Part shown: positions 41,990-59,829 of the stretch, piece after piece | Numbering within the stretch: position 1 is the first letter of the stretch | Layout: each line of letters opens with the position of its first letter | Made by a program: the position numbers and the translations under genes | Assembly: GCA_020353515.1 (NCBI GenBank) | Contig: CP070695.1 | Location: 839,369 to 903,368 of the forward strand | DNA: 64,000 nt | Source: Candidatus Heimdallarchaeota archaeon | GTDB taxonomy: Archaea > Asgardarchaeota > Heimdallarchaeia > Hodarchaeales > Hodarchaeaceae | Direction: 5' to 3' | The notes under the pieces: model-generated | The model's database searches: none | The model's input: the letters and a program-made list of their open reading frames with translations, nothing else | Told to the model about the DNA's origin: nothing

Positions 41990-43441
41990 TTACGCAATCA
42001 TTGAGGACCAAGGATATCGTTTACTAATCTCTTGAAGTAAGCGATTAACCTTTCGTTCTTCAAAGGTCTCTCGATAGCATAAACATATTACTAATCCACC
42101 ACGAGTTCTTTTAAATCTTTGATACATTGTTTTCACTGTATTGACGACATCATAAACTATCATTAGATTTGCTTGAGGGATATCAATATCACGTTCCCCT
42201 ACAGCAGTCATGACTAACACAGCTTTTGCTTCTTCTCTCTTGAATTTGTTTAGCACCTCTATTTTGTTTCTGACTTGCCCAGTAATTAGGAATGAGGCAA
42301 TTCCCCTCTTCTCTGTTTCCTCTTGTAAACAACTAGCAGTGTCTAAAAATGAGCATAAGACGACAGTTTTAGAATTAGGTGGTTGTTTTTTAATAAGATC
42401 ATGTACCGCCTTGATCTTCGTCGTTTTTTCAGGTAAAGCCTTAATAAGTTCCTTAGTTACTCCAAATTTCTTCAGTCTATACAGAAATCTCCTAAATTTT
42501 TTTGGTTGCATTGCTGTACAGTATTTACGTATTAATAATAACCCATGATATTTTTGATTATCCCCTGATTCAGACTCCAACATACCAGACACTAGAGCTA
42601 ATTGTGATGAAGGAATCGCCTCAAGGAGTGTTGGTTTCTCTTCCAAGGTTTCATCTATAATTTTTTGACGTAAATTTTTTATCGCTTGATCTATCAGGTC
42701 CAAAATAGTCTTCAATTCAGGACTCACATCAATCTGTAGTCGTTGAATGAAAGTGTTCTGGATATAATCTTGTATATCCGTCTGTGCTAAGAGTGAGTCC
42801 ATTCGAATAATATGAAGTCCAGGAATACTATTATTCAGAGTGACAATCTCTTGCTGAATTTCTATTGTTTCTTTCCTAAAATCAAAGAATATGTGATCAT
42901 CACGGATTGTGCCAGTCATTCCAACAATCCAAGCTTTTGATTGTACAAAATAGGGGATAAGGGTGTTATAAGGATAAATTAATAAACGAGAATCTCCGTG
43001 TCGTCGAACTATTTTATCTATTTCATTAATAATTACTACGTCGAATATAGGTTTTGTTATGAATTTCTTGAAGGCATTTGAGAATGTTTGTGGAGTGGAT
43101 GCGACTATTCGAGCGTTTTCAAGAATTTTTTTTCTGAGGAAACTTGGTGTTCTACTTGAAAAAGCTTGAAAATCAGATTCTCGAAATCCCCCATATTCTT
43201 CCTTGAAGTAATGAATTGTTTCAGAAAAGCTCAGAGTTGAATGTAATAGAAGAAGTACTCTTTGTTTAGGAAGAAGATCCTTGATAAGCAAATAAGTGAG
43301 AACACGTTTTCCCAATCCAGTGTCAACTTCGGCTATTGTGTGGTATCCTCGAAGCCAATTTTCTTTAAGTATAGAAAGAATCTTTTCTTGATATTGTCTT
43401 TGTTGAATTACACTTCTTTCTGTCGAATGATGGTTTACCAA
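41990..43441 (-). CDS. Divergent Hef/FANCM(Mph1)-like SF2 helicase without nuclease domain
   Basis: Q motif RQYQ, DTGLGKR, STPQ, motif II INEID, GMTGT, VGERDIDIPQ, QRFKRTR. Confidence 0.75.
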   Translation of the reverse strand: MVNHHSTERSVIQQRQYQEKILSILKENWLRGYHTIAEVDTGLGKRVLTYLLIKDLLPKQRVLLLLHSTLSFSETIHYFKEEYGGFRESDFQAFSSRTPSFLRKKILENARIVASTPQTFSNAFKKFITKPIFDVVIINEIDKIVRRHGDSRLLIYPYNTLIPYFVQSKAWIVGMTGTIRDDHIFFDFRKETIEIQQEIVTLNNSIPGLHIIRMDSLLAQTDIQDYIQNTFIQRLQIDVSPELKTILDLIDQAIKNLRQKIIDETLEEKPTLLEAIPSSQLALVSGMLESESGDNQKYHGLLLIRKYCTAMQPKKFRRFLYRLKKFGVTKELIKALPEKTTKIKAVHDLIKKQPPNSKTVVLCSFLDTASCLQEETEKRGIASFLITGQVRNKIEVLNKFKREEAKAVLVMTAVGERDIDIPQANLMIVYDVVNTVKTMYQRFKRTRGGLVICLCYRETFEERKVNRLLQEISKRYPWSSMIA

Positions 43442-43568: not shown

Positions 43569-46500
43569 GTGATAATTATGTCGAAAGACTTATATGACCA
43601 GCTAGGGCTCACATCAGAAGAGACCCGAGTTTATAGCATTATCATTTCTAATTTAGTGAGAACAATTGATGAAGTAGTAATTTTGGCAAGGGATCTAAAC
43701 CCTGAAGTTATTAAAACCGCTCTCGACGGATTAGAAAAGAAAAAATTTTTACGAGTAATTCCTGGGAAGGTGCCTCAGTATATCGCCTTAGCTCCAGCAA
43801 TAGCTGTTACTAGTGAAATTGACAGGCAAATAGAAAACGAATTGAATCAAAGTCAAGAGGAAATCATGAATCGGTGGGAAGTAGGACAAAAAGAACTGCT
43901 AGATATGATCAATGATTTCCAAAAGGGTCCAGAACTGTTCACAAGAACTGAAAGAGAGATTCACTCCCATATTAATACCTATATGGAACAGATAAAGACT
44001 AAAAGTATGGAGATCCTACAACAGATCAAAAAACAGATCTCTGTTCAAAATCAAAAAAATTCTAAAAGTCTAGAGGAATTGAGGTCAGATTTCTCTTCTA
44101 ATTTAGAAGCAGAAGTTCAAAAAAACATCTCACAGCTTGAATCACAACTTCAAGCAATCAAAGATGCTCAAACAGAAGAAAGAGCACAACTTCTTGAGAA
44201 AATTTCAAAAATTTACTCTGAAAGAATTGATAGTTTCAACATTCTATTCTCTCAAGTGAAACAATCAGTTCAAACACATCAACAACAGCTTTCAAATTCA
44301 ACTGAGAATTTAAATTCGACCCTCACGAGTGTTAATGAACAAACAAAGCGGAATATCAAGAATAGTAAGGCCACTAGCCAAGAAGATCTCGATTCAATTG
44401 AAGAAGAGGTAACTAAGAGAGTTATTGATAAATTAACAATCATTAATCAAAGTATTGAATCAGTGCAATCAAATCTCATAGAAGTAAGTGAGGAATCATT
44501 GAAGTCCATTCAAGGAATGGTTGGAATTTTCAGGGAAAAAACTTCTCAAAGTTCAGCCTCTGTAGTGGAAATCACAAATAAAACAGCAGAAAATCTATGG
44601 CAACACATTCAAAAGATGCTTCAATCGTTTGCCCAAACTATCAGTAGTTTAGATGAGGTTAAAGAAAAACTAACCTCACAAGAAACAATTAACAAATTAA
44701 ATGTCGCAACTTCTAGCGTAAAGGATGGATTATTTAAAGGATTAGAAAACCTCGACGAGGTTTATACAGGTGGAGTAACACTTATCAATACAGAAATGAC
44801 TAAACAGTTGTTATCCTTTCAAGAAAGAATGCAAAACGATATTTCACAATTATTTACACAGCTAGAAAGTTCTATCCAAGAAAAATATGCTATTGGTATA
44901 GAAAAAATCACTGATTTACCCTTGGAAATCTCCTCTCTTTTAGATACTAATAGAAATATGATTATTCAAGAAACTTCAGAATTACATAATAAAGTTTTAG
45001 GAGATTTTAAGCAGCAAATTCAACCCACGATTAACAATCTATCAGAATATTTTACAGAAATGATAAGGAAGATATCAGATTCAGAAAAGGTCTTCATTGA
45101 GGATTCAGAGATAGATTTAGTAGATATATCAACTGCTATCGATGAACTAAACCTGAAAATGAAGGAAACAGTTTCAAATCGTGGGAAGCTCTCAGAAGCA
45201 TTACAATACCTCCGAAATGTAGCAAATGAGGAATTCTCGTCTTTTGGATCTTCTGCCAATATGATGCTAGGCCAAATGCAATCAACGATAACTGAAAATG
45301 TTGCAGCACGAACAGAAGAGATTTCTCAGAATTTTGAAGTGATTAATCAAGTTACTGGGGAATTAAATAAGATTTCAAACAATTCTCAAGCAGAAATCTC
45401 AAAAATTCTTGAACAATTGGAAACTAGCATAGATGCTGGGAATCAAACAATTTCTGAAGCTTTTGATCAGGATATTGCTAATCTCGCGATGGATGTTGAA
45501 GAAATTAACAAAGCAGCGATAAAAGAGCAAGAGGATCTAATAATTGCATCAAATGACCGATTAAGTTCTCTAAGTGATAGAATTGGAAAATCAACCCTAG
45601 AACTCAGTCGTAATATTCCCACTCAATTAGAGGAATACCAAGCACGCCATACTGACGATTTTAATAATTTCGATAGAGCAGTAAAGGCGGAATTGAATAA
45701 AATTAAAGCTCGCTTAACGGAGATTAATTCTGAGGTCACCGAAAGATTAGGTAAAAGAGTAAGCCTAGGAAAAGGAGGATTTCAAGATATAGAGAAAATT
45801 GTTACATCTGCGATGAAGGATTTTGAAAGTGCTCAAAAACGAACAGAAAGACTCATCGACGACCAAATCCATAATTTCAACGCATCTAGTGAGTCTTTTG
45901 CAGAAACAATAAACACTAGCTTGAATACTCAAAATTTAGAAATCCAACGATTAATGGACGCCATCAGTGAAGATCTCTCAAAATCTGTGAACTCCTCGTA
46001 TGAATTAGCACTGAAAAATATCTCCGTGTTTTCAAATAAAATAAGGGAGAGATTTAACTCACGAAAAGATGATCTTGCTGATCACCTTTCCCTGCTCCTA
46101 TCCACGATTTCAGCATCACTTGGAGAAAGTCTTAAGGGTAGTCTTGTGAATGAATTTGAAAAAATGGATTCTACATTACAACAAATAAAACAAACAGCTC
46201 AAGCACCACAGGAGTTAGAGACAATACTTGGCGCTGAAGTAAATAATTTTATCGGAAACCTACAACTCGCATTTCGATCAGCGAGTGAATCAGGAGCAGC
46301 TCGGATTGCTGAAGTAATTAACGAATCAGTCACTACAGAGATAGAGAGAACCTATGACATTTTAAAGGAACAATTTGACCTATCAAATCTCAAAGATATA
46401 ATTACAAGTCAGTTGAAATCAACTTCTCATAAAGGAACAAACGTTCTATCCCAGATTAGCGATGAATTAAATGAAAAATCAAATGTATTGCTTGTATCAA

Positions 46501-48185
46501 TAAATGAGAACCTTCAAAACTTGAAAACAAGTCTAGCTGAAACTCAGAACCAAATCAATGAATTTTTAGGGTCTCAAATTCAGACTTTAAATTCAACTCA
46601 AGAAGAAAAATTTCGCAAAGTTCCAGCTCACTTGGAGGAAAATAAGACAGATCTAATCTCCACTTTAGAAGGAGCTCAACAAAAATTTCAAAATTCTATC
46701 ACAACTGCCAATCAGAGCATTAATGACTCAATTAAGGAATTATCTTCTATGATTACATCTGGTACGACTGAGAAACTGCAGGATATTCGAACCCTTCCTA
46801 ATTTTTTAGATAAGACAACAAAGGAATTGCTAGATGATATTGAATTTCAGTACAACAGTTCACAAGAAAGTATTGAGGATGTAAGGGCTTCAAGCTTAGA
46901 TCACCTAAAGAATATAGAACAATTGACTGCAAAACAGAGAATAGAATTTACTGACCAAATCAAAAATATAAACATTGAACTAGAACACGAGTTAAGTGAA
47001 CTGGAATCAATGGTAGCCGAATTAGATAAAAACTTCCCAGATATAAAGACTCAAACAGAAAAAGAAATTCAACAAGCAATAAAATCATTCAGTTCTGATA
47101 TTCGAGATATTTCTACAAAAATTGAAACAGAATTAAGCTCTGGTAAAATACAACTTAGTCAAAAAATGGATCGTCTTTATAAAGAATTTCTCGCATCCGT
47201 CGATTCATTCGCGTCGACAGGTGAAAATTTTGTTAATTCTTTAAATACTCGCCATAATACGTTGTTAAATCAAGTCAACAACTTTTTAGATGACAGTATT
47301 GCAAATAGTATTAATACGATGGAAATTGAGAGAAAAACTGTTATCGATCGCCAGCAAGCACATTTCACAGAAGTTGATCAAAGTGTAACTAGTTTTTCAG
47401 CTAATTTTGGCAAAGTAATCACTAATAGCTTAGAAGGCATCTCGAATGACATACAAGAAAGCGCTTCAGGAATTATTTCTACGATTACTGAACTGGGTGG
47501 GGCATATTACGAACCCATTGATACCATGCTTACAGATTCATATTCATTCTTCGAATCAGAAGGACAGAAGATCATGAATGTTCTTGAACATGAAGTTCTG
47601 AATCTCGTCTCAGAGACTGACAAAAAGGCAACTCAAACACAGGATACTATATCAAGCGATTTAGCTCAATTAATTGGAACTATTCCTGATAAAATAGGAG
47701 CTGGGCTCACAAAAAGTAAAGATCTAATGTCAGCAATCTCAGAGGTACAAAAATTAGCAATGGAAGTTCCAATAACTAGTGTTGAGGATACTTATCTTCA
47801 AACTCAAACTGAAACAAAAGTAATAGCTACATTAGAAGCCATGCTAAGTCGTACAAAGTCTACGATACAAATTATGGTACCGAAGTTATCGATGATTCCG
47901 TGGGATCTTTTAGAACAAGCAGGAACACGACGACGAATACAAATCCTCACTCAGGTTGATTCGCAAGAAGTTGCTAATAAAATATCTCAAGAACTGGGTA
48001 ATGTCCAATTAAAACATTATGAAAATGTTGAGGTATATGCTTTTGCAAGAGATGGCAATGAGGAAGCTGCCATCGGTTCAGGTGATAGCAGTGGTATTCA
48101 ATTGATCATTACAACGGATAGTCGCCTTATTGGAATACTAAAAGAAATAATTCAAGATTTATGGCCGCGAGGTAAATCAATTTAA
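43569..48185 (+). CDS. Giant coiled-coil protein with TrmB-like wHTH N-terminus and TrmB effector/PLD-like C-terminus
   Basis: LGLTSEETRVY...LEKKKFLRVIPGKVPQYIALAP (TrmB wHTH); about 1300 aa of heptad-rich helix; C-terminal MLSRTKSTIQIMVP...IQILT...ARDGNEE. Confidence 0.75.
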   Translation: MIIMSKDLYDQLGLTSEETRVYSIIISNLVRTIDEVVILARDLNPEVIKTALDGLEKKKFLRVIPGKVPQYIALAPAIAVTSEIDRQIENELNQSQEEIMNRWEVGQKELLDMINDFQKGPELFTRTEREIHSHINTYMEQIKTKSMEILQQIKKQISVQNQKNSKSLEELRSDFSSNLEAEVQKNISQLESQLQAIKDAQTEERAQLLEKISKIYSERIDSFNILFSQVKQSVQTHQQQLSNSTENLNSTLTSVNEQTKRNIKNSKATSQEDLDSIEEEVTKRVIDKLTIINQSIESVQSNLIEVSEESLKSIQGMVGIFREKTSQSSASVVEITNKTAENLWQHIQKMLQSFAQTISSLDEVKEKLTSQETINKLNVATSSVKDGLFKGLENLDEVYTGGVTLINTEMTKQLLSFQERMQNDISQLFTQLESSIQEKYAIGIEKITDLPLEISSLLDTNRNMIIQETSELHNKVLGDFKQQIQPTINNLSEYFTEMIRKISDSEKVFIEDSEIDLVDISTAIDELNLKMKETVSNRGKLSEALQYLRNVANEEFSSFGSSANMMLGQMQSTITENVAARTEEISQNFEVINQVTGELNKISNNSQAEISKILEQLETSIDAGNQTISEAFDQDIANLAMDVEEINKAAIKEQEDLIIASNDRLSSLSDRIGKSTLELSRNIPTQLEEYQARHTDDFNNFDRAVKAELNKIKARLTEINSEVTERLGKRVSLGKGGFQDIEKIVTSAMKDFESAQKRTERLIDDQIHNFNASSESFAETINTSLNTQNLEIQRLMDAISEDLSKSVNSSYELALKNISVFSNKIRERFNSRKDDLADHLSLLLSTISASLGESLKGSLVNEFEKMDSTLQQIKQTAQAPQELETILGAEVNNFIGNLQLAFRSASESGAARIAEVINESVTTEIERTYDILKEQFDLSNLKDIITSQLKSTSHKGTNVLSQISDELNEKSNVLLVSINENLQNLKTSLAETQNQINEFLGSQIQTLNSTQEEKFRKVPAHLEENKTDLISTLEGAQQKFQNSITTANQSINDSIKELSSMITSGTTEKLQDIRTLPNFLDKTTKELLDDIEFQYNSSQESIEDVRASSLDHLKNIEQLTAKQRIEFTDQIKNINIELEHELSELESMVAELDKNFPDIKTQTEKEIQQAIKSFSSDIRDISTKIETELSSGKIQLSQKMDRLYKEFLASVDSFASTGENFVNSLNTRHNTLLNQVNNFLDDSIANSINTMEIERKTVIDRQQAHFTEVDQSVTSFSANFGKVITNSLEGISNDIQESASGIISTITELGGAYYEPIDTMLTDSYSFFESEGQKIMNVLEHEVLNLVSETDKKATQTQDTISSDLAQLIGTIPDKIGAGLTKSKDLMSAISEVQKLAMEVPITSVEDTYLQTQTETKVIATLEAMLSRTKSTIQIMVPKLSMIPWDLLEQAGTRRRIQILTQVDSQEVANKISQELGNVQLKHYENVEVYAFARDGNEEAAIGSGDSSGIQLIITTDSRLIGILKEIIQDLWPRGKSI

Positions 48186-48223
48186 CTTTTTTCATCATTA
48201 ATATCTCTTCACAGCGATTTAAA

Positions 48224-49378
48224 ATGTTAGAGATTTCATTGAATGATATCAATAAATTGGGATTGTACAAACAGCATTTATCAGAGGATAAGCGGACTCA
48301 AGATCTTATAGAGGTTGTACAGGAAATAGCTGGACTTCACGCAACCATTCCAAGGACTCCATATTTGAGTTTGTTTGCCAGGATCAATAACTTTACGAAA
48401 GAGCTTCTAGATGAGGAGCTCTATATAAAAAAACGTCTAGGAAAGATCAGATGTGTTCGCAGAACTCTTTATATTTTCCCTCAAGAAATGATCCCAGCTT
48501 TTCATATGGCAACCACCAAAATGGTAGAAAAACTAACCAGAAAATCATTAGAATATCAGGGGATATCATTCAACACATATCAAAATATTTCAGAATCAAT
48601 TCTTAGAATTTTAAAAGAAAAAAACGAAGAAATGACTGCGTCGGAAATTAAAAAAGCTCTAAAAACTAAATTGAATCTCTCAAACATTTTATATCTGATG
48701 TGTGACCAAAGGCTTCTTATACGAGGTAAACCTCGTAAATACTTTCTTTTTTACGCATATTTCCCTAGGATGGATTTTTCATTGAGTGAACATGAAGCAA
48801 TAACTCAACTTGTAAGATACTATCTTCAAACCTTCGGCCCTGTTTCAGAAGAAGATGTAGTCTGGTGGACTGGTTTAGGAAAAACACAGATAAAAAAAGC
48901 AATAAAAGGGATTCAAGATGAAATAGTACAGGTTAGGGTCACTGATTTAGAGAAGAATCTTCTTATGTCAGAATCTAATATTAAAATGTTCACTAAGATT
49001 ACTCTGGAAAAGAAAGTTGTAAATCTTCTACCAACTTTAGATTCGTATATCATGGGTTACAAAGAACGTGAAAGGTATTTTATCCCAAATAATCATTATA
49101 ATCATGTTTTTGATCGTACTGGTAATGCTACATCGATAATTTTAATGGATGGGCAAATAATTGGCGTTTGGGATGTAATAAATAACAAAAAACCCTTAAT
49201 AAAACTTTTCCTCTTTAAAGAAGTTAATGATAATGTAATAGGGAAAATTTACCAAAAAGCAAAGCAAATTGGAACTTTCATCTCTGATAAAGAAGTTACG
49301 ATAAAGGAATGTAATTCTATGATTCCTTTAACTGAGAGAACTGCAGGATCATTTATGTCACCACTTAGAGATAGCTAG
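48224..49378 (+). CDS. AlkZ/YcaQ-family winged-helix DNA glycosylase-like protein
   Basis: GLHAT..PYLSLFARI, RRTLY, YLQTFGP...WWTGL, LLPTLDSYIMGYKER, DGQIIGVW. Confidence 0.85.
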   Translation: MLEISLNDINKLGLYKQHLSEDKRTQDLIEVVQEIAGLHATIPRTPYLSLFARINNFTKELLDEELYIKKRLGKIRCVRRTLYIFPQEMIPAFHMATTKMVEKLTRKSLEYQGISFNTYQNISESILRILKEKNEEMTASEIKKALKTKLNLSNILYLMCDQRLLIRGKPRKYFLFYAYFPRMDFSLSEHEAITQLVRYYLQTFGPVSEEDVVWWTGLGKTQIKKAIKGIQDEIVQVRVTDLEKNLLMSESNIKMFTKITLEKKVVNLLPTLDSYIMGYKERERYFIPNNHYNHVFDRTGNATSIILMDGQIIGVWDVINNKKPLIKLFLFKEVNDNVIGKIYQKAKQIGTFISDKEVTIKECNSMIPLTERTAGSFMSPLRDS

Positions 49379-49477
49379 ATAGAGTTTATGAACTGAAAAC
49401 TTAAGATGCAGATTATCTATATTTTCTGATAAGTTAGATATTCAAGCAGAGAGTTAAGATTCAGGCTGGAAATTACA

Positions 49478-49951
49478 ATGATCCAAATTCGACGCGCTAG
49501 TATAAATGATGTACCTACGTTAGTCCGATTTAGAAGTTTATTATTCAAAGAGATGGGATTATTGAGGGGAGAGCAGGAAGAAAAATCTTTTGAAAGAGCG
49601 TGTGAGCTGTTTTTTACTCAGTTTATTCCCCAGAACGAATTTCTATCTTGGATAGCTGAAGATGATAAGAAAGTAGTAGCTGTAAGTGGTCTTGTATTTT
49701 TTCAAAAACCTCCATCTCCTGGAAATAATTCTGGAAAAGAAGCGTATATCATGAATATGTATACACTTAAAGAATGGCGGAAGAAGGGTATAGCATCAAA
49801 ATTATTAAAAAAAATTACAGCCTTTTTAAACCAGATGAGGATCATTTCTATTAGCCTACACACTACAGAAGTTGGGAGAACTGTATATGAGAAATTTGGT
49901 TTTTCTCTCGTAGATACTGAGATGAAACTCTTAATCGAACAAAACCAATGA
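49478..49951 (+). CDS. GNAT N-acetyltransferase
   Basis: NMYTLKEWRKKGIA, YEKFGF. Confidence 0.9.
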   Translation: MIQIRRASINDVPTLVRFRSLLFKEMGLLRGEQEEKSFERACELFFTQFIPQNEFLSWIAEDDKKVVAVSGLVFFQKPPSPGNNSGKEAYIMNMYTLKEWRKKGIASKLLKKITAFLNQMRIISISLHTTEVGRTVYEKFGFSLVDTEMKLLIEQNQ

Positions 49952-49952
49952 A

Positions 49953-52319
49953 TTAAAAAGCTCCATGTTCGGTTCTTCTAATGATTTCATCCTGGAGTTC
50001 AGGGATTAAGTCAACAAAATAATCACTATACCCAGCAACACGTACGATTAGATCACGATACTTCTCTGGATTTTCCTGGGCCTTTCTTAAGGTATCTGCA
50101 GTTACTACATTAAATTGAATATGATGACTATCTAATCTGAAATGAGCACGGATTAAGTGCATCAATTTATCGATACCCTCGTCAGACGATAGAAGCTGAG
50201 GGGTGAACTTCTGGTTTAAGAGGGTTCCACCTGTCCTTAAATGATCGATTTTTGAAACAGATTTAATAACTCCAGTTGGCCCATTTCTGTCTGCACCTTG
50301 AACGGGTGAAATACCTTCTGATAGGGGTTCTCTATTTCTCTTACCATCGGGCATTGCGCCAGTCATTTGGCCAAAATACACATGGACAGTTGTGGGAAGA
50401 AGATTAATTCTATGAGATCCTCCTTTCATATTAGGTCGTCCATCTACAGCTGCAAAATAGCTCTCGAATACTCTTACAGTAATGGAATCTGCATAGTCAT
50501 CATCATTACCATATTTTGGGGTTTCATTCATGAAACGGTGTCTTAATTCGTCAAAACCCTCAAAATCAGCTTTCAGCGCTTTTAGAAGCTGTTCCATATT
50601 GGTGTGATCATTATCAAATATATTGTATTTTATTGAGGTTAAAGAGTCAGTTATACTTCCTAAACCAACACCTTGTATGTAGGATGTGTTATACCTAGCA
50701 CCTCCTCCGTTGTAATCCTTTCCATTGGGTATACAATCCTCAATTAATAGGGAAAGGAAAGGACACGGCATGTATTTAGAATAGATCCTTTCTATGATAT
50801 TATTCCCTCTGATTTTAACATCAATGAAGTAGTTTAGTTGTTTCTCATAAGCATTATATAACCCATCAAAGCTATTGAAAGCAATAGGATACCCAGTTTT
50901 TATTCCAATTTGTTTTCCAGTTCTGGGATCGATACCATTGTTAAGAGTTATCTCCAAAACTTTTGGCATATTAAAATATCCAGTTAAAATATAGGCTTCT
51001 GTTCCGAAAGCACCAGTCTCCACACATCCACTAGCTCCCCCTTTCCTTGCATCTTTCAATGATTTTCCTTGACGCACCATTTCCTGAATGATAGCTTCAC
51101 AGTTAAAGATTGAGGGTTGGCCATAACCAGTTTTGATAATTTTTATAGCTCGTTTAATTAAGCGATTGGGATTTTTCTTACTTAATTGGACCATGGAACT
51201 GGGTTGTAATAACCTCATTTCTTCGATGATATCTAGTAATAAATAGGATAGTTCGTTTGTTGCATCTGATCCATCTTCCTTAACTCCCCCAATATTAATC
51301 AGGGTGAAATCAGTATAGGTATTGCTCTCTTGAGCTGTCACTCCGACCTTTGGAGGAGCTGGTTGATTATTAAACTTAACCCAGAAAGCTTGAAGCAGCT
51401 CTATTGCTTCCTCTTTAGTTAATGTTCCCTCCTCAAGCTCTTTTTTGTAAAAAGGATATAAGTGTTGATCTAGTCTTCCGGGATTAAATGAATCCCAAGT
51501 GTTTAGCTCAATTGTGACACCAAGATGAACAAACCAATAGTATTGCAACGCCTCCCATAGAGTTCCAGGTGTTTGAGCTGGTACTTTTCGGCAAATTTCA
51601 GACATTTTTATCAATTCTTTTGAACAATTACTATCTGAAACCTCATGAGCCAGTCTTTCTAATGCCTCAGAGTATCGATGAGCATATGTAATCAGGGCAT
51701 CCGCAGCAATATCCATTGCTTTCAATTCTTCTCTTTTATCATAGGCTTCAGGGTCATTATAGAAATCCAAATTTTTGATAGAATGTTTGATGTCTTCTTT
51801 AAGATCTAGGAACCCTTTATTATAAATTATATCGCCTAAAACTGTATGACCAGGAGCTCTTTGCTCTTGAAATTCAGTAAAAACACCCGCTTCATACGCA
51901 TCTTTCCATTCATCGGAAACAGAACTGAAAATTATATCTCTAATAGACCTGCCGTTTTCCCAAAATGGAATGATGGTGTTTTTATAGATATCTCGTGTTT
52001 CAACGCTGACCAGAAAGGAAATTTTTTCCCTTGAGTTTAAAATCTCAAGATCTTTTAAGCTGTGGACACATAATTCTGGATAAGTAGGTGCAGCCTTTGG
52101 TTTTGACCCTTTTTCCCCTACAATCAGCTCCCCATCGTTAATACACAATTTTTTATTCTCTAAAAGATACTTGAAAGCCAAAGCACGCTTCACGGGGATT
52201 GAAACTCGATCAGCAATATCACTTTGATAGAATTGTGTAAGTAATACTGCCCTTTCAGCATCTAACCACGGTTTTGCCTCCAAGCTTTGTTGTCGTAATT
52301 TCTGTATTCGTTCATTCAT
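49953..52319 (-). CDS. hypD: Glycyl radical enzyme, trans-4-hydroxy-L-proline dehydratase
   Basis: FTEFQEQRAPGHTV, ELNTWD, KFNNQPAPPKVG, ESNTYTDF, Cys loop SGCVETG, LPTTVH, Gly loop VRVAGYS; matches HypD as I recall it. Confidence 0.85.
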   Translation of the reverse strand: MNERIQKLRQQSLEAKPWLDAERAVLLTQFYQSDIADRVSIPVKRALAFKYLLENKKLCINDGELIVGEKGSKPKAAPTYPELCVHSLKDLEILNSREKISFLVSVETRDIYKNTIIPFWENGRSIRDIIFSSVSDEWKDAYEAGVFTEFQEQRAPGHTVLGDIIYNKGFLDLKEDIKHSIKNLDFYNDPEAYDKREELKAMDIAADALITYAHRYSEALERLAHEVSDSNCSKELIKMSEICRKVPAQTPGTLWEALQYYWFVHLGVTIELNTWDSFNPGRLDQHLYPFYKKELEEGTLTKEEAIELLQAFWVKFNNQPAPPKVGVTAQESNTYTDFTLINIGGVKEDGSDATNELSYLLLDIIEEMRLLQPSSMVQLSKKNPNRLIKRAIKIIKTGYGQPSIFNCEAIIQEMVRQGKSLKDARKGGASGCVETGAFGTEAYILTGYFNMPKVLEITLNNGIDPRTGKQIGIKTGYPIAFNSFDGLYNAYEKQLNYFIDVKIRGNNIIERIYSKYMPCPFLSLLIEDCIPNGKDYNGGGARYNTSYIQGVGLGSITDSLTSIKYNIFDNDHTNMEQLLKALKADFEGFDELRHRFMNETPKYGNDDDYADSITVRVFESYFAAVDGRPNMKGGSHRINLLPTTVHVYFGQMTGAMPDGKRNREPLSEGISPVQGADRNGPTGVIKSVSKIDHLRTGGTLLNQKFTPQLLSSDEGIDKLMHLIRAHFRLDSHHIQFNVVTADTLRKAQENPEKYRDLIVRVAGYSDYFVDLIPELQDEIIRRTEHGAF

Positions 52320-52322
52320 TGA

Positions 52323-53123
52323 TTATCCTCCAAGCTTGGTTTTAAATCCAAGTTCTCTGAATATGTCCAATAACTGATCCAACCTTTCTGTTGATGGAGG
52401 GTTAAGGTTCAATAATTTATTTTCACGTTTTAATTTTATGTACTTGCTGTACCCAATTTTGTGAAACGGAAGAAGATTAATTTCCTTAATGGTTTCAAGT
52501 TTTGTTATCCATTCTGCTAATTGACTAATATTCTCCTCTGTTTCTGTAATTCCCGTAATAACTGGGAAACGGATTATTATGTACTTTCCCTCTTCATCAA
52601 GTTTCTTTAGATTTGATAGGACTGGTAAAACTGATACACCAGTATATTTCTGATGTTTAGCATCATCAATCATCTTGAGATCGTATAAAAAAAGATCCAC
52701 TTTATCTTTTATTCTCTTGATAATCTCCCAAGAGGCGTACCCGCAAGTATCAAGCGTTGTTGATAGTTCTCGGGTCAGACATGCGATTAACAGGTGATCC
52801 AAAAAATCAGGTTGCATTAATGGCTCCCCACCAGAAAAAGTTACTCCACCACCAGATTGATCATAAAAAATCAGATCTTTCTCTATTTCAGTGATAACCT
52901 CTTCAACACTTACCTCTCGTCCGATGATTTCTTTTTGAGTATTTTGTTCTTCCCAAATTCTTTCAGGTTTTGGATTTTGACCCTCTGGATTGTGACACCA
53001 CCAACAGTTTAAGGGACAACCCTTTAGAAAAACAGTTGTTCGGATACCAGGGCCATCATGAAGTGCATATTTCTTAATATCAAAAATAACTCCTCTACTT
53101 TGCGTTTCCATCACTTCATGCAA
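52323..53123 (-). CDS. Glycyl-radical enzyme activating enzyme (radical SAM)
   Basis: HDGPGIRT, CPLNCWWCHNPE, GVTFSGGEP, LLPFH; lies 3 nt upstream of the GRE gene. Confidence 0.93.
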   Translation of the reverse strand: MHEVMETQSRGVIFDIKKYALHDGPGIRTTVFLKGCPLNCWWCHNPEGQNPKPERIWEEQNTQKEIIGREVSVEEVITEIEKDLIFYDQSGGGVTFSGGEPLMQPDFLDHLLIACLTRELSTTLDTCGYASWEIIKRIKDKVDLFLYDLKMIDDAKHQKYTGVSVLPVLSNLKKLDEEGKYIIIRFPVITGITETEENISQLAEWITKLETIKEINLLPFHKIGYSKYIKLKRENKLLNLNPPSTERLDQLLDIFRELGFKTKLGG

Positions 53124-53245
53124 TTATAAGAGAGTAAGAGCTTGTTTCGGACTTCAATAAAAATTCTGATATAACTTATTCTTTACGAATTCACTTTTTA
53201 ATCAGATCATAATATAAAGTATAATAAGAGTTTGGATGAATATTT

Positions 53246-53683
53246 ATGTCAATATTTTCGACTCCAATTATACACAAAGTATTGATCAAATCAGACCGAA
53301 AAAAAGTCTTTGACAATATGACAACTGCAAAGGGGTTAGATGGATGGTTTACAACTGGAGCTTATGTTGACCGTAGACCAGAAGGGGGAAAGATTATCTT
53401 TAAATGGGTAGATTGGGGACCTGATAAAGTAAATACCCAAGCAATTTGTCCTATAGTCGAAGTAAAGGTTCCTGAACGATTTGTATTTAAATGGTGGGAA
53501 GATCATTATACAACAGTTGAATTTGACTTTACTGAAGCGGAAGAGGGAACTGTAGTGAGTGTTAAGGAATACGGTTACACTGACACCTTAGAAGGGCATC
53601 GTCGTTGTCTTGAATGTGCTGTTGGTTGGGGAGAAGCATTAACTCTCCTAAAATTCTTCTGTGAGTATGGGTTAAGATATTAA
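53246..53683 (+). CDS. SRPBCC/AHSA1-like ligand-binding protein
   Basis: KVFD...GLDGWF, PERFVFKW, GWGEALTLLKFFCE. Confidence 0.85.
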   Translation: MSIFSTPIIHKVLIKSDRKKVFDNMTTAKGLDGWFTTGAYVDRRPEGGKIIFKWVDWGPDKVNTQAICPIVEVKVPERFVFKWWEDHYTTVEFDFTEAEEGTVVSVKEYGYTDTLEGHRRCLECAVGWGEALTLLKFFCEYGLRY

Positions 53684-53736
53684 CATTGATTTGCAAGATC
53701 AGGGAGTAAGAACTTTAGAGAAAATATCAAGACCCA

Positions 53737-53970
53737 TTACCTTTCTTTCATCATTTCATCTATTTGGGTAATATACTTTTGTAAATCATCACTAGGTTGA
53801 GGAGCTATTTCTTGTCTTTTCCTAAATCTTAGCCCAATATTCCAACCAAGGACAGCCATAAGAACGAAAAAGAATATAATAATATTTGTATAAAAAAGAA
53901 ATAGCAATATCACACTAAATATGCCTACAGCTAATATAAACAATATCGGGTGTTCTTGTTTTTTCGACAT
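53737..53970 (-). CDS. Small membrane protein
   Basis: 77 aa, two hydrophobic segments, AGGA upstream. Confidence 0.6.
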   Translation of the reverse strand: MSKKQEHPILFILAVGIFSVILLFLFYTNIIIFFFVLMAVLGWNIGLRFRKRQEIAPQPSDDLQKYITQIDEMMKER

Positions 53971-54100
53971 TTAGTTTTTTTCCTATATAAGAAGAATCAC
54001 TTGGATTAATAATAGTTTTAGATTGAGGATTTTTTTTATTCTCATTATTTATGGTCAAGAAAAGAGCATTATCAGTAGTAAAAAATGTTGAGTTGAATTA

Positions 54101-55153
54101 ATGAAGAAATCTGAAAGCTTTATTTCTATATTTGACCCAGATAGTACTTCTGATGAATTGTGGGAGAAGTATTATCTCTTTTATTTACGAATTTTTAAAG
54201 AAATGTTTCCTGATGACCCCCCACCATCAAAAGAGTGTCTGAAAAAAGAGATGGAAAATCCTCATCCAGATAATAAAGATTATCGTTGGATTCTTTCAGA
54301 GGAGAAGAGTAACAACATCATTGGTTATGGGAGAGTTACAGTTTATAATAAATCATCACCTGCTTACCAAGCGAATAAACACATAGCATTTGGAACTTTA
54401 TTTGTCGATAAATCGCACCGTCGGCTTGGATTTGGTGAAGATTTACTAAAAATTCTAGTGAAGAAAGTAAAAGATGAGAAAAAAACAATATTTCAAGGGG
54501 GAACTCTATTAGAATCTGGGAAAGCATTTTGTGAACAGTTTGGAGGAATAATTGCATTAACAGAAGAAGAAAGCCGATTAAAGTTGGAAGAAGTAGACTG
54601 GGAGATGTTAGATGAATGGATAGACGAGGGAACGCGTCGTGCAGAGGGAGTGACAATTAAAAGGTTTGAAGTTGTTCCAGAGAAAGATCTAGAGGACTAT
54701 TGCTTGATATTTACTGAAACATTAAACCAGGTTCCGAAGGGGGAGCTTGAATGGGAAGCTAATGAGACTCCAGAAATCCGAAGAAGTCGAGAAAAACGGA
54801 ATAAGTTGATAAATCTAACTTGGACCACATTTATTTCTAGAGAAGATGATGGTACAATAAGTGGGTTAACAGAGACATTCTATCAACCAGATCAGGCATC
54901 ACTCCTCTTCCAAGGATTAACAGGTGTTAAAAAACAGTACAGGGGAAGAGGATTAGGAAAATGGTTGAAAGCAGAGATGCTAAAGTATGCTAAGAAAACC
55001 TTTCCAAAGCTGAAGTTTGTTGTCACAGATTTTGCGGTCACCAATGCTCCTATGATTGCTATCAACAAAAGATTAGGCTTTAAAAAACACAAATTCTGGA
55101 AGGAATACAAGTTTAATGTGGATGAATTAACAGATTCCTTGAAACTTCAATGA
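54101..55153 (+). CDS. Tandem GNAT acetyltransferase
   Basis: VDKSHRRLGFG and TGVKKQYRGRGLG; NAPMIAINKRLGF. Confidence 0.88.
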   Translation: MKKSESFISIFDPDSTSDELWEKYYLFYLRIFKEMFPDDPPPSKECLKKEMENPHPDNKDYRWILSEEKSNNIIGYGRVTVYNKSSPAYQANKHIAFGTLFVDKSHRRLGFGEDLLKILVKKVKDEKKTIFQGGTLLESGKAFCEQFGGIIALTEEESRLKLEEVDWEMLDEWIDEGTRRAEGVTIKRFEVVPEKDLEDYCLIFTETLNQVPKGELEWEANETPEIRRSREKRNKLINLTWTTFISREDDGTISGLTETFYQPDQASLLFQGLTGVKKQYRGRGLGKWLKAEMLKYAKKTFPKLKFVVTDFAVTNAPMIAINKRLGFKKHKFWKEYKFNVDELTDSLKLQ

Positions 55154-55836
55154 TTATAGTTGACCTGGATCACCCAAAAGATACTTGATTCATCTACTTC
55201 CTCAACCGTTGAATTTAGCTTCAATTCTGAAGATAATCTAGTAAAATCTTCAGGTGTATATGTTGATGCTATAAAGCCATCCTTGCATACGATAATCCCA
55301 TTTTTGCTCTTTTCCATATCAATCTCCCCTATCAATCCCTCTTCAGATTGTTTAATAAACCAATCAAGTCGTTTTTCCCAAATTTTTTCAGAATAACTTG
55401 AGAAGAGAACCTTTCCTCCAGTTTTGGTTACTCTGATACTCTCTTGGATTAGTTTGTAGGGATCGACTTTAAAGGCTGAAATTCCATTTTGAATGGCGAT
55501 GACAACTTGAAACATTTGATCTTCAAAATCGAGAGAGACTGCATTCATTTTATGCAATTTAATATTTGAAAAATCGGTTAAGTACTCTTGAGCGTACAAA
55601 AGACTCTCCTCTGAAGTGTCAATGCCAGAAACAAATTGTGCTTCCTCTGCTAATCTAGCTAATACTCTTCCATACCCACAACCAAGCTCAAGAACATGAT
55701 CTGTAGACTTGATATTCTCTAGGATAAATTTTATCTCCGCTTCTAAATATTGTTGGATTCGGGGAGGCGCAATTTCATAACATCGTTTCAAACGTAACGC
55801 AGAAAGTTTTGTGGAGTAATATTCCTCTTTACTCAT
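55147..55836 (-). CDS. Class I SAM-dependent methyltransferase
   Basis: VLELGCGYG, GIDTS, RVTKTGG. Confidence 0.9.
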   Translation of the reverse strand: MSKEEYYSTKLSALRLKRCYEIAPPRIQQYLEAEIKFILENIKSTDHVLELGCGYGRVLARLAEEAQFVSGIDTSEESLLYAQEYLTDFSNIKLHKMNAVSLDFEDQMFQVVIAIQNGISAFKVDPYKLIQESIRVTKTGGKVLFSSYSEKIWEKRLDWFIKQSEEGLIGEIDMEKSKNGIIVCKDGFIASTYTPEDFTRLSSELKLNSTVEEVDESSIFWVIQVNYNH

Positions 55837-55927
55837 AATGAGAAATCCTCTATAGAGTAATCTCCAGACCTAAATACACTAGACAGAATGATTGAACGCT
55901 TCTAGATTTAATAAAAACTTCTGAAAA

Positions 55928-58084
55928 TCATTTTATGGTCTTAATAACTTCGTCGACATCTTTAATGATTTGTTTTACCGATGTAGTAACATTACCAGTA
56001 TTGGTATTGATATTCATTGTAAGAGTTTCAGCAGCAGTATCAATCCCAGTTTCAATCTCCTCGAATTTAATATCAAGATTACGACGTTGATCATCTATTG
56101 TTGCACGTCGAGTCCGATTAGCATCAACAGTTAAATCAAGACTTTGTTGTTGATCGTCAAAGAATCGGGTAAATTTCTCGTGAAGATTATCTCGATATTC
56201 ATTAAGTGTATCTAAGTTTTTATTCAGTTCTTGAGTAGTTGTTGCACGGAATTTCGCAATAGAACTCTTGTGTTCGTCCTCTAATCCTTCAATGAGTTCT
56301 TTGGTGCTTTCTTCACTAGCTTTTACATTTTCATCCAGTTTATGATGAGTTTCTCCAACAATTGATTGAATCGCAGTCATACCATCTTGTTCAATAGCAG
56401 TTATTTGTTTCCTAAGGTCATCAAATGCCGCACTACTCGTCCTTGATACTTCTGATTTCTTTTCTTCGATATATTCACGGTTAGATTCAACATGATCATT
56501 AGCAGCGGGAGAAATACTACTTATTGTCGTAATTAATTCACTTTGTTTTGTACGAAGAGTGTTTCTAATATCAGTGAGTGTTGTTTCGATATTTTTCTCC
56601 TGTCCAGATTGAAGAGTTCGGAATGATTCATTGACTGTTGTCTTTAGCTGATCAAGAGTTCCACTGTTCTTCTCAATAGTTTCACTAACCCGATTTTGAG
56701 TATTATCAAAAAAATTCATTAGTGAAATATCCAAATCATTTCCTGTTTTATTGAGCTTTTCAGTTGTAATCTGTTTATAATTGTCAAGTGAGGAAGAAAT
56801 CGCTCTGAATCGATCGTCCACAGCATTTACTAAACTAGAATAGACATTTTCCCGATCCTTTTCATATTCATCAGAGACTTGAGAGAAAATCCCTGTCAAT
56901 TGTTCTTCTAGTTGTTTCCCAATACCACCAATTTTGTTCAAATTGCTTACAAGAAGTCCATCAAGACTTTCTTTCATTTCATCACGAGCACTGGTTAACC
57001 TAGAAACGAGGGCATCAATTTGATTGAGGATTGAATCTTGAAATTTGGAGAAAGAGAGAGTTATGTTATCAATTTCATTGTAGAGGTTGGTTTTGAGTTG
57101 ATTTTCTAATTCTGACATTAATTTTTCTTGAGATAATTCATTTGATTCCAAAGCTTTCTTAAAAGATGTTCCAGTGGTATCTTTAATTGAGGATATAGCA
57201 TTTAAATGCTCTTGTTGCATTGTTTCCCAATCTACTTTGGATTCAGCTATTTGATTCTCAATTCTAGTTTTCACATCAGCTTTGGCCTTTAAAATTAATT
57301 TTTGAATGGCTTTTTGCATCTCTTCATTAGTAGTTTTCTGACCTGCAAGACTCTCTTCTAGATTGTTCATCACACCGTCAATACTTGCAAGTAAATCCTC
57401 TTTTGCCATCTCCAATCGGCCCACGGAATCACTAACGGTTCCAGCAAAGATAGCATCAACATTTGCTTCCTTAGAATCACTGAGATCTCTAATTTTTGTT
57501 TGAAAATTAGACAGTGATTCGAGAAATGAGGTAGCAATACTGTCAGTCATCTCACGCTGATTAGCGCTTTCACTTTCTACTGTACTGACAATATCCCGCT
57601 GAATCTGCGTTAATTTATTAGAAATAGAAGTTTCAAAATCAGATATTTGACTTCGTTGCCCCGAATAAATATCGCTTAACCCAGTGTTAACTTTTCCAGC
57701 CATTTGAGAGTAGATAGAAGATACATCTCCCTCTTGTTTGGTTGATAGGTCAACTATTGCTTTTAGAAGATTCTGAACACCAGAGCTCACTTCTCCCAAT
57801 AATCCATCTAACCTACTATTTAGTGCATCTTTTTCAGAAACAAGAGTTTTTTTCTTATAATCTTCTAATTCTTTTGCTAAATCATCGATACTACTCATTA
57901 ACGAGTTTATTTCAGAAAGAGTGCTAGATTTAGTCTGATTTAATGAGCTAGTGAAACTTTCTAACGCTTTTTTACTTTCATTTTGAAAATCATGGATTCG
58001 TTGTTGAATTTGAGTATTTTCACTTTCAAGTTTTGCTTTATTATCTTTAATTCGACTGATTTTATCATCCTGTTCAGTACTCAT
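55928..58084 (-). CDS. All-helical coiled-coil protein, 718 aa
   Basis: Continuous amphipathic helices; almost no Pro, no Cys, no globular domain. Confidence 0.75.
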   Translation of the reverse strand: MSTEQDDKISRIKDNKAKLESENTQIQQRIHDFQNESKKALESFTSSLNQTKSSTLSEINSLMSSIDDLAKELEDYKKKTLVSEKDALNSRLDGLLGEVSSGVQNLLKAIVDLSTKQEGDVSSIYSQMAGKVNTGLSDIYSGQRSQISDFETSISNKLTQIQRDIVSTVESESANQREMTDSIATSFLESLSNFQTKIRDLSDSKEANVDAIFAGTVSDSVGRLEMAKEDLLASIDGVMNNLEESLAGQKTTNEEMQKAIQKLILKAKADVKTRIENQIAESKVDWETMQQEHLNAISSIKDTTGTSFKKALESNELSQEKLMSELENQLKTNLYNEIDNITLSFSKFQDSILNQIDALVSRLTSARDEMKESLDGLLVSNLNKIGGIGKQLEEQLTGIFSQVSDEYEKDRENVYSSLVNAVDDRFRAISSSLDNYKQITTEKLNKTGNDLDISLMNFFDNTQNRVSETIEKNSGTLDQLKTTVNESFRTLQSGQEKNIETTLTDIRNTLRTKQSELITTISSISPAANDHVESNREYIEEKKSEVSRTSSAAFDDLRKQITAIEQDGMTAIQSIVGETHHKLDENVKASEESTKELIEGLEDEHKSSIAKFRATTTQELNKNLDTLNEYRDNLHEKFTRFFDDQQQSLDLTVDANRTRRATIDDQRRNLDIKFEEIETGIDTAAETLTMNINTNTGNVTTSVKQIIKDVDEVIKTIK

Positions 58085-58098
58085 GAATTCTCACCCTT

Positions 58099-59829
58099 TT
58101 ATGTGTTAGTTTCTGGTGAGGGTACAGATTTGACTGTTGTACCCGCCAGTAGTGATTTAAAAAACGATGCTTCTGCATCAGAAGTATAAGTTTTTATTGC
58201 TTTATTCACTGCGTCTGTGGCTGAATTAATATCATCTGCTCCTTCGAACAGCTTGAAAGCGTGATAGTAAGATGCACGTGCCAATTCAAATTGCTGCTGT
58301 TTATCGTATTTTTCCGCATTCTGAAGATAGACCATTGCTGCACGCTGAGAGATATCTTTTCGTTTCCGCTCGTTTTTAACAAAACGATAAGCTTCCAAAG
58401 CTTTTCGATAAAGTGCAGTGGAATAAGGAAGCTTTTCTTGGTTGTAAAACTCACGGGCAGTTTCCTCGAAGAACACACCACTTCCCTCTACATCTTTCGC
58501 CATGCGCAAGAAATTACCCGTAAGAATAGCTAAACGATATGCCTCAAAGAACTTTTGAGTTTCGAAAGCACTTTGATAGAGAGATTTTGTACGATTTGGA
58601 ATAGATTTATCTTCTAACTTCTGTTCTGTTGAGTATGATGCCTGTTCCAACCGTTCCAGAACCTTGGGGTTCATTTCAAACCCCATCATCATATCTGCCT
58701 CAAGTACCTGTAATAATAGTCCAGCTTCAGCTTTCAAATCTATGACAGAAAGACCTGAACCTAGTGATGAAAAAGCAGCATAACTTCCAAACTGATAGAA
58801 ATCCCCAATTTTAATAATCAAACCTTTTGCAACTAGAGAATCTCTAGTACTTTTTGGAATCTTAGCTGATTCAAATGCTTCTTGGGGAATAGCATTACGA
58901 GAAGAACCCAACATTAACTGAAGAACCTTATTTTCTTCTTCATCAATTCTATAAACTTCTTGAAGAAAAGCACGAAGGGCAAACGTACGAATAAAAGGTT
59001 GTGCCATCTCCTTTATGGATCTTTCACTTTCGTCTAAGCCTTCTTGTTTAATTTTATCTTCGACCCAACGAACAACATCCACAATAAAAACAAGGCTAAA
59101 TGGTGAACGATCACTCTGCTTTACGAGCTCCTCGCGAAGTTGGCTACTACTTCGTAGAATCCCATGAGCAATTTTTGTAAGAAGAAGTTTTGAATCTGAA
59201 AAATCTAATTTATCTAACGCAAAATGCTCACTAATTTGGACAAGTTCTTTGATTTCATCTAAATTATATTCTTGACAAGTTCCAATAAATAATAATTGTG
59301 GAAATCTGCTTTGTAGAACCTTGAGAAGAGCACATAATCCATCAATGACATATTTTTGTCCGGAATCTAAAATCCGATCAAGGGAGTCCAGAGCAATAAC
59401 AATTGAGGATTTAGGAGGGCGATGGGTTAAGTTGTTAGAGTAACCGCTAATAATGTCAGACATTTTTGATTTTAGTGTAAAAGATTTTATCTCCTCTTCC
59501 TTTGCTTTCTTAAGAAATCCCTTCTTTTCTTCAGTTAAATGAGGAGAGAGGGCTTGATAAATATCACGGAAGAGATTTCGAGTCATTTTTCCACCCATTC
59601 CGATTGGTATGGAAACGAATACCATCATCTCATTTTTAACAATCTCACCAAAAACATTCAGTAAACTAGTTTTACCAATGCCTGGAGATCCAGAAATGAG
59701 AATAAAATTCTCTTTAAGCTTTTCCTTCTTGAAATCAGCTAATATTGATTCAAAGCGTTTCTCGTGGCTTCGTCGTCCCACAACTAAATGGGGCTCACAA
59801 GGTTTCAAAAAATTGTCATAGGAACTCAT
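58099..59829 (-). CDS. P-loop ATPase (AAA_16/STAND-like) with wHTH and C-terminal TPR/SNAP-like repeats
   Basis: VGRRSH, GSPGIGKT, IVIALDSLD, DRSPF (GxP equivalent), LVAKGLI wHTH, repeats YSTALYRKA and ARASYYHA. Confidence 0.8.
   Translation of the reverse strand: MSSYDNFLKPCEPHLVVGRRSHEKRFESILADFKKEKLKENFILISGSPGIGKTSLLNVFGEIVKNEMMVFVSIPIGMGGKMTRNLFRDIYQALSPHLTEEKKGFLKKAKEEEIKSFTLKSKMSDIISGYSNNLTHRPPKSSIVIALDSLDRILDSGQKYVIDGLCALLKVLQSRFPQLLFIGTCQEYNLDEIKELVQISEHFALDKLDFSDSKLLLTKIAHGILRSSSQLREELVKQSDRSPFSLVFIVDVVRWVEDKIKQEGLDESERSIKEMAQPFIRTFALRAFLQEVYRIDEEENKVLQLMLGSSRNAIPQEAFESAKIPKSTRDSLVAKGLIIKIGDFYQFGSYAAFSSLGSGLSVIDLKAEAGLLLQVLEADMMMGFEMNPKVLERLEQASYSTEQKLEDKSIPNRTKSLYQSAFETQKFFEAYRLAILTGNFLRMAKDVEGSGVFFEETAREFYNQEKLPYSTALYRKALEAYRFVKNERKRKDISQRAAMVYLQNAEKYDKQQQFELARASYYHAFKLFEGADDINSATDAVNKAIKTYTSDAEASFFKSLLAGTTVKSVPSPETNT

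Follow-up and report, generated by a model that had tools for sequence, protein, structure and literature searches.

The window analysed here is a stretch of 64,000 nucleotides (nt) from the closed 4.94-Mb genome of a Candidatus Heimdallarchaeota archaeon (GenBank assembly GCA_020353515.1, contig CP070695.1, positions 839,369 to 903,368). Its forward strand carries a giant gene with similarity to TrmB, whose product is highly likely to possess a TrmBL2-like head, a 90-nm hairpin built on an 11-residue (hendecad) repeat and a conserved basic tip. In the databases, the proteins nearest to it bear Hodarchaeota, Heimdallarchaeota or Promethearchaeota names. The family is currently annotated as hypothetical or "helix-turn-helix domain-containing", with nothing further, and a full-text search of open-access papers and preprints found no published description of it. 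The gene and its parts are listed below (PLD, phospholipase D; AF2, AlphaFold2).

43569..48185 (+), giant TrmB-like rod gene: a GTG-to-stop open reading frame of 1538 codons, with the stop at 48183-48185
43578..43796 (+), winged helix-turn-helix of TrmB/TrmBL2 type, residues 4-76 (Pfam, family profile, paralogue model)
43797..43943 (+), conserved first post-wing helix and start of the N arm, residues 77-125 (profile alignment, conservation)
43944..45752 (+), N arm, an acidic hendecad helix, residues 126-728 (periodicity; AF2 helix over 561-728)
45546..46058 (+), conserved tip module, residues 660-830, the best-conserved part of the giant protein
45753..45779 (+), hairpin turn KRVSLGKGG, residues 729-737 (AF2 loop; fixed central site in the family)
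45780..47720 (+), C arm, an acidic hendecad helix about 40 residues longer than the N arm, residues 738-1384 (periodicity, AF2)
47721..48182 (+), PLD-like α/β domain, residues 1385-1538, boundary approximate (family profile, paralogue model)

The real start is probably ATG 43578, which yields 1535 amino acids (aa): in the alignment all orthologues (1533-1538 aa) begin at the MS(K/T)DLY position, three codons past GTG 43569.

The proteins with which the two ends are compared are TrmBL2 (TK0471/PF0496; PDB 5box, 5bpd, 5bpi, 5bqt), a chromatin protein of Thermococcales, and TrmB (PDB 3qph, 2f5t). An earlier note, made from the letters of this DNA, had placed a TrmB-type winged helix at the N terminus and an effector-like domain at the C terminus; both assignments are borne out. 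At the N-terminal end, Pfam TrmB matches the single giant sequence weakly (E 0.017, 15.4 bits, with a cut-off of 25.6), while PF01978 is matched by 25 of the 41 family members, at best with E 7.5e-13. When 20 N-terminal domains are combined into a profile, the solved structures that match it best are TrmBL2 (E 1.1e-12) and TrmB (E 2.9e-12). The alignment spans the winged helix and the following helix, reaching TrmBL2 residue 111; the helix at residues 77-125, where conservation is 0.77-0.90, corresponds to the α5 dimerisation helix of TrmB and TrmBL2. The N-terminal domain of a paralogue modelled with AF2 superposes on winged-helix repressors with Z about 11. The wing motif IPGKVPQY..AP is invariant in orthologues, and its PGK..Y..P part is common to TrmBL2.

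The counterparts of the C-terminal domain are effector subdomain 1 of TrmB and the C-terminal domain of TrmBL2. Among solved structures, a profile of 33 such domains matches residues 86-201 of TrmB 3qph best (E 0.014). The domain was modelled only in a 715-aa paralogue, which is 44% identical to the giant protein in this region. Foldseek places TrmBL2 on top for this model (E 1e-6), followed by PLD-family proteins and TrmB. The domain superposes on TrmB 2f5t 110-238 (Z 13.4, root-mean-square deviation (rmsd) 2.4 Å, 122 residues), TrmB 3qph (Z 13.1) and TrmBL2 5bpd (Z 12.5, rmsd 2.6 Å), and also on PLD-family nucleases. Across the 33 aligned domains the HxK(x)4D (HKD) motif is missing and His is nowhere invariant or nearly so; what is conserved are Arg, Pro, Asp and Glu positions. 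Since no His is conserved, the domain is not a PLD-type enzyme like Nuc, Zucchini or PLD3, though it has the PLD fold. The giant protein stops where subdomain 1 closes, and the sugar-binding β-barrel (effector subdomain 2, Gly320/Glu326) is absent. A 312-aa metagenomic protein, P0040, consists solely of two tandem copies of the PLD-like domain, which suggests that the domain normally works paired, as in PLD-fold dimers.

The hendecad rod and its central loop

Between the two domains, the earlier note had seen about 1300 aa of coiled coil. A long helical region is indeed present, rich in Ser, Glu, Leu, Ile, Gln, Thr and Asn and with a net charge of -72, but it measures about 1260 aa (residues 126-1384) and its repeat is the hendecad (11 residues, 3.67 per turn), not the heptad of a classical coiled coil. 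The autocorrelation of the rod profile has its maxima at 11, 22 and 44 residues, with low values at 14 and 21. In local windows across residues 111-1320, hydrophobic power is 4-19 for a period of 3.67 residues per turn and 0-2 for 3.5; the 3.67 signal drops, to 0.9, around residues 496-605 only.

In nine orthologues, down to 43% identity, the rod is nearly free of insertions and deletions (indels) and the protein keeps its 1533-1538 aa; such a near-constant length at this identity implies that rod length and register are under strong constraint. About a dozen Pro/Gly positions are conserved within the rod, and there is no Cys anywhere in the protein. Weak single-sequence matches to apolipoprotein, ZorA, LmuB, FliJ, MtrG and Baculo_PEP_C were put down to the helical repeat and the composition. 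The match to the apolipoprotein A1/A4/E family (PF01442), in eight stretches, scores 70.4 bits, under the gathering cut-off of 90; it and the sub-threshold ZorA-tail and LmuB matches are due to the 11-residue amphipathic repeat.

The Gly/basic motif RLGKRVSLGKGG (residues 726-737, nt 45744-45779), noticed earlier for its position close to the middle of the rod, lies about 20 residues before the midpoint. Its residues G734, K735 and G737 are invariant in the nine orthologues and in the paralogues. Conservation peaks at residues 691-750 (0.90-0.93), above both end domains, and residues 701-750 form the sole net-basic 50-aa window in the rod. The tip module is common to the 715-aa paralogue and a 1091-aa relative. 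No hinge domain or CxxC zinc hook was found at the tip, which is a loop of 6-9 residues in a Cys-free protein.

Very probably the rod folds back at this Gly/Lys loop, which puts both terminal domains, winged helix and PLD-like, at the same end and the basic tip at the opposite one. The earlier note had proposed just such an arrangement, with a reunion of both TrmB halves; the support that the fold-back now has, computational throughout, comes from five concordant lines: arm lengths, the predicted centre, a blind profile test, mirrored indels and structural models.

Three length classes that keep RVSLGK.G have N and C arms of 201/240, 391/428 and 609/651 aa: in each of them the C arm exceeds the N arm by 37-42 residues. 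The expected position of the tip was calculated solely from where the two domains end and start, as (N-domain end + C-domain start - 40)/2, and there distant relatives have a short basic Gly/Pro loop, for example KKLSLGKEE or KKFSLGTDE. In a leave-one-cluster-out test on 18 proteins of 715-1812 aa, each cluster was searched with a profile built from the predicted centres of all the others; the best match fell no more than 16 residues from the predicted centre in 16 of the 18, with E from 1e-5 to 1e-15. This test replaced the use of the most basic window as a tip finder, which was too noisy.

Arm lengths change in pairs. Two relatives of 1532 and 1392 aa, which share 76% identity, are set apart by 33-aa deletions at both 310-342 and 1123-1155, with the tip at 735; further deletions about the same tip are at 540-579 (40 aa) and 910-942 (33 aa). 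A second close pair has mirrored indels at 579-600 (22 aa) and 842-856 (15 aa), and a pair of 1812 and 1168 aa differs by the loss of some 323 residues in one arm and of 315 in the matching mirror region of the second arm. Of the mirrored indels, several are 22 or 33 residues long, that is, two or three whole hendecads. The 715-aa paralogue retains residues 4-239, 643-828 and 1257-1538 of the giant protein, so that its arms are shortened by about 403 and 428 aa.

Residues 560-910, folded with AF2 (mean predicted local distance difference test, pLDDT, 79.9) in a segmental prediction of the kind that the earlier note had proposed, form a hairpin: helices 561-728 and 735-877 are joined by a single loop at 729-734, and P684 leaves its helix unbroken. 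This model superposes end to end on the hairpins of the chemoreceptor 2ch7 (304 of 309 residues, Z 12.4, rmsd 8.3 Å), Rad50 and Smc, where Z values of 12-13 are evidence of shape only. In the model of the 715-aa paralogue the turn falls at the SLGKSG loop, and a single pair of helix breaks occupies mirrored positions. In the AF2 models helices run uninterrupted for 107-168 residues, with breaks at the tip and at this one mirrored pair only. At the standard helical rise of 0.15 nm per residue, 600-650 residues give an arm of about 90-97 nm.

Partner genes and distribution

Homologues of the giant protein form a small family: a search of 1.84 billion proteins at E 1e-3 yields 42 representatives, and all named members are from Asgard archaea. 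Relatives occur in 29 of the 301 genomes searched (E 1e-10), spread over several Asgard families. At nine loci from distant lineages the giant gene stands last in a tight operon, together with an ATPase gene (A) and a second rod gene (B). There, gene A encodes a STAND-like AAA_16 nucleoside triphosphatase (NTPase) of 570-593 aa that also contains a winged helix and TPR-like repeats. In six of the nine loci gene B could be resolved, and it encodes an all-helical hendecad protein of 430-770 aa; the other three have an unclustered gap of 1.2-1.5 kb between gene A and the giant gene. Counterparts of both genes lie in the window, and two paralogues of the giant gene elsewhere on the host chromosome:

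58099..59829 (-), partner gene A: 576-aa STAND-like AAA_16 NTPase that also carries a winged helix and repeats of TPR/SNAP-like type (Pfam)
55928..58084 (-), partner gene B: 718-aa all-helical hendecad protein, 14 nt downstream of gene A
host chromosome 3187104-3189251 (-), 715-aa paralogue with the same architecture and tip motif
host chromosome 4608767-4611169 (-), more distant 800-aa paralogue with the same architecture

Gene A of the window is 23% identical to gene A of the distant operons over 567 aa (E 3e-22), and gene B matches its distant counterpart weakly (E 2e-5). The description of the giant protein as ATPase-free, made in the earlier note, thus holds for the polypeptide itself but not for the system, whose operon in distant lineages includes the STAND-like ATPase. 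Among the proteins analysed, gene B has the strongest coherent 3.67-residue periodicity. It carries GGIGK near its own centre (residues 386-390), and this second rod may also fold back.

The A-B pair (55928-59829) is convergent with the giant gene at a distance of 7.7 kb, and two genus relatives have an equal layout with spacers of 13.5 and 17.6 kb. As the spacer length differs, a former operon has apparently been split by insertions, the pair being the displaced partners of the giant gene. The intervening region of the window (48186-55927) contains unrelated genes: an AlkZ-like gene, GNATs, a glycyl-radical enzyme and its activase, AHSA1 and a methyltransferase.

Gene A is present in one copy in the host genome, and neither the 715-aa nor the 800-aa paralogue adjoins an ATPase copy. 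Among 22 genomes of the genus, eight contain both the tip family and the ATPase, ten contain neither, one has the tip family only and three the ATPase only; as these genomes are related and incomplete, the co-occurrence is to be read as a pattern and not as a statistical test. One orthologue, at G244:C1:664254-667349, begins to match at residue 505 in an open frame of about 1268 aa and may be N-terminally truncated; gene A was not found in that genome, which is 70% complete.

Proposed mechanism and competing explanations

The end domains of the giant protein and their order equal those of TrmBL2 and TrmB: a winged helix with PGK..Y..P, a helix and a PLD-like domain. Like TrmBL2, it has no C-terminal sugar-binding barrel (PMC4158304). 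In contrast to TrmBL2, with its 264 aa and one short linking helix, about 1260 aa of hendecad hairpin stand between the domains, and the protein lies outside the 250-350 aa of the TrmB family (Pfam PF01978 for the DNA-binding domain, PF11495 for the effector domain), in which a short amphipathic helix makes the join. Further differences from both are the loss of the Tyr50/Asp51 pair, the association with an ATPase and a second rod, and the fact that the family was found in Asgard archaea only.

The predicted geometry resembles that of SMC, Rad50 and MukB: an antiparallel intramolecular arm, N- and C-terminal domains in one head, a conserved far tip and arm lengths that co-vary through paired indels. 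Unlike these proteins, it has no hinge domain and no CxxC zinc hook, its repeat is the hendecad where theirs is mostly the heptad, and the ATPase of the system is the separate STAND-like protein; no ABC ATPase head or other ATPase family match was found for the giant protein in Pfam or NCBIfam. With the cytoplasmic hairpin of chemoreceptors (2ch7) it shares a long helical hairpin in which the tip is most conserved, as expected of a protein-docking site. There is no kinship in sequence, however (no MCPsignal match), nor any membrane or HAMP part, and the rod is hendecad instead of heptad and three to four times longer. A hendecad two-helix coiled coil is also found in the peripheral stalk of A/V-type ATPases, the E-G heterodimer, where it acts as a stiff strut (PMC3293630, PMC6131620); that stalk is a parallel heterodimer of short proteins with no intramolecular hairpin, and no homology links the two.

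We propose that the short inter-domain helix of a TrmBL2-like protein grew into two hendecad helices of about 600 and 650 residues. These would pair antiparallel, turning at KRVSLGKGG, to give a stiff acidic arm of about 90 nm with the winged helix and PLD-like head at one end and the positive tip at the other. The head, probably dimeric, would bind DNA non-specifically and in a wing-dependent manner, as TrmBL2 does. The tip would dock onto a partner: the second rod, the ATPase, a membrane or nucleic acid. The arm would act as a spacer or tether of fixed length, its assembly governed by the ATPase.

On balance we favour this picture as a whole, a fold-back spacer or tether with a TrmBL2-type head in an ATPase-linked system. 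The spacer or tether function taken by itself we put forward tentatively, as the best fit to the strict length, the set paralogue sizes (715, 800 and 1535 aa), the peak of conservation at the tip and the genetic association with an ATPase and a further rod protein. A molecular ruler is suggested by the near-constant length in orthologues and the fixed paralogue sizes. More speculatively still, and with considerable doubt, the three genes might form an Asgard-specific machine, assembled under nucleotide control, that spaces DNA 30-110 nm, depending on the paralogue, from another structure of the cell, for instance the membrane or a filament. If true, this would be a prokaryotic chromatin-positioning scaffold without known counterpart, in the lineage closest to eukaryotes. 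Fixed-length fold-back arms are familiar from the DNA-organising ATPase machines SMC, Rad50 and MukB; here an SMC-like geometry would be set on a head of the TrmBL2 chromatin-protein type, with a hendecad repeat and a separate STAND-like ATPase. The family is a concrete set of proteins open to expression and testing.

Several points weigh against this proposal. In TrmB the recognition helix contacts DNA via Tyr50/Asp51 (PMC4158304); the pair is not kept in the giant protein, which has Lys49/Thr50 at this place, with Lys or Gln in orthologues. On its exposed side this helix also differs from one orthologue to the next, and DNA binding by the head, deduced from homology only, is plausible. The AF2 model of the whole paralogue is weak (pLDDT 64, predicted template modelling score 0.39), and AF2 monomer models favour hairpins in any case, as a lone long amphipathic helix has no other surface to pack against. 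When the conserved Pro/Gly breaks are reflected about 735.5, 8 of 13 find a mirror partner within 10 aa (p about 0.01), but a mean-distance test is non-significant and a centre near 794 fits equally well; we did not use this symmetry as support for the fold-back. Finally, the tip family is patchy (9 of 22 genus genomes), which suits an accessory system more than a core chromatin component.

Two other shapes for the rod have to be considered. It could be drawn out into a parallel dimer of about 190 nm, with a pair of winged helices at one end, a pair of PLD-like domains at the other and the central motif serving as a kink or binding site. Proteins of the TrmB family do dimerise in parallel via the post-wing helix (PMC4158304), and the tandem domains of P0040 hint at domain pairing. 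This model nevertheless leaves unexplained why the motif is central in rods of 440 to 1545 aa and why indels are mirrored about it, and AF2 models turn at the motif; we consider it very unlikely. The dozen or so conserved Pro/Gly interruptions, the Pfam matches to apolipoprotein and apolipophorin-III families and the symmetry centre near 794, which fits the breaks as well as 735, would be in keeping with a chain of three- or four-helix bundles resembling spectrin, EzrA or apolipoproteins, and thus with a shorter, thicker or curved object. Against such a chain, which appears improbable, AF2 helices of 107-168 residues are unbroken, even at P684; the apolipoprotein score (70 against 90 bits) is under the cut-off and due to the 11-residue repeat; and paired 33-aa mirror indels suit a two-stranded register.

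The remaining alternatives concern function. That the protein is an ordinary sequence-specific repressor or activator, whose long helix merely serves oligomerisation, has in its favour the homology of its end domains to TrmB regulators. It is most unlikely, given that the protein has no sugar-binding subdomain, its DNA-reading residues lack conservation and differ from those of TrmB, rod length is held within 5 residues at 43% identity, the tip is more conserved than the head and the genetic linkage is to an ATPase and a further rod, not to a target operon. The main functional rival, compatible with the fold-back, is a defence system against viruses or plasmids, suggested by the patchy distribution and the STAND-like ATPase: STAND NTPases are common defence sensors, the part that the ATPase would play here, and the two rods, of which one has a head for DNA binding and a domain of nuclease fold, would be the effector or a DNA-measuring part, loosely as in Lamassu, Wadjet or Zorya. 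In its favour, the family and the ATPase are patchy yet co-occurring in the genus (8 genomes with both, 10 with neither, 1 and 3 with a single one), the spacing between the giant gene and the A-B pair is variable (7.7, 13.5 and 17.6 kb), and the rods match the ZorA-profile tail and LmuB profiles in PADLOC. These PADLOC matches (E 2e-20), however, span about positions 230-830 of the ZorA profile, which is its helical tail only; Pfam and PADLOC find no MotA/ExbB-type, SMC-head or other defining defence domain in the giant protein, and its PLD-like domain is without the HKD catalytic motif. Named members from Asgard archaea only, with 42 representatives in 1.84 billion proteins, are unlike widely transferred defence systems, and the genome with three paralogues of set length has a single ATPase. 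We regard a defence role as unlikely.

Genomic surroundings

The giant gene is flanked upstream by a divergent XPB/Rad25-like helicase gene (41990-43441, minus strand), and downstream, after 38 nt, by a gene for an AlkZ-like DNA glycosylase (48224-49378, plus strand). Both neighbours are syntenic in genus relatives (52-75% identity) and absent beside distant family members. A link to DNA repair through these neighbours was therefore dropped, their synteny being confined to the genus. A 136-nt AT-rich spacer separates the helicase gene from the giant gene and would presumably hold its promoter; 3' of the stop codon, a run of T residues is a candidate terminator.

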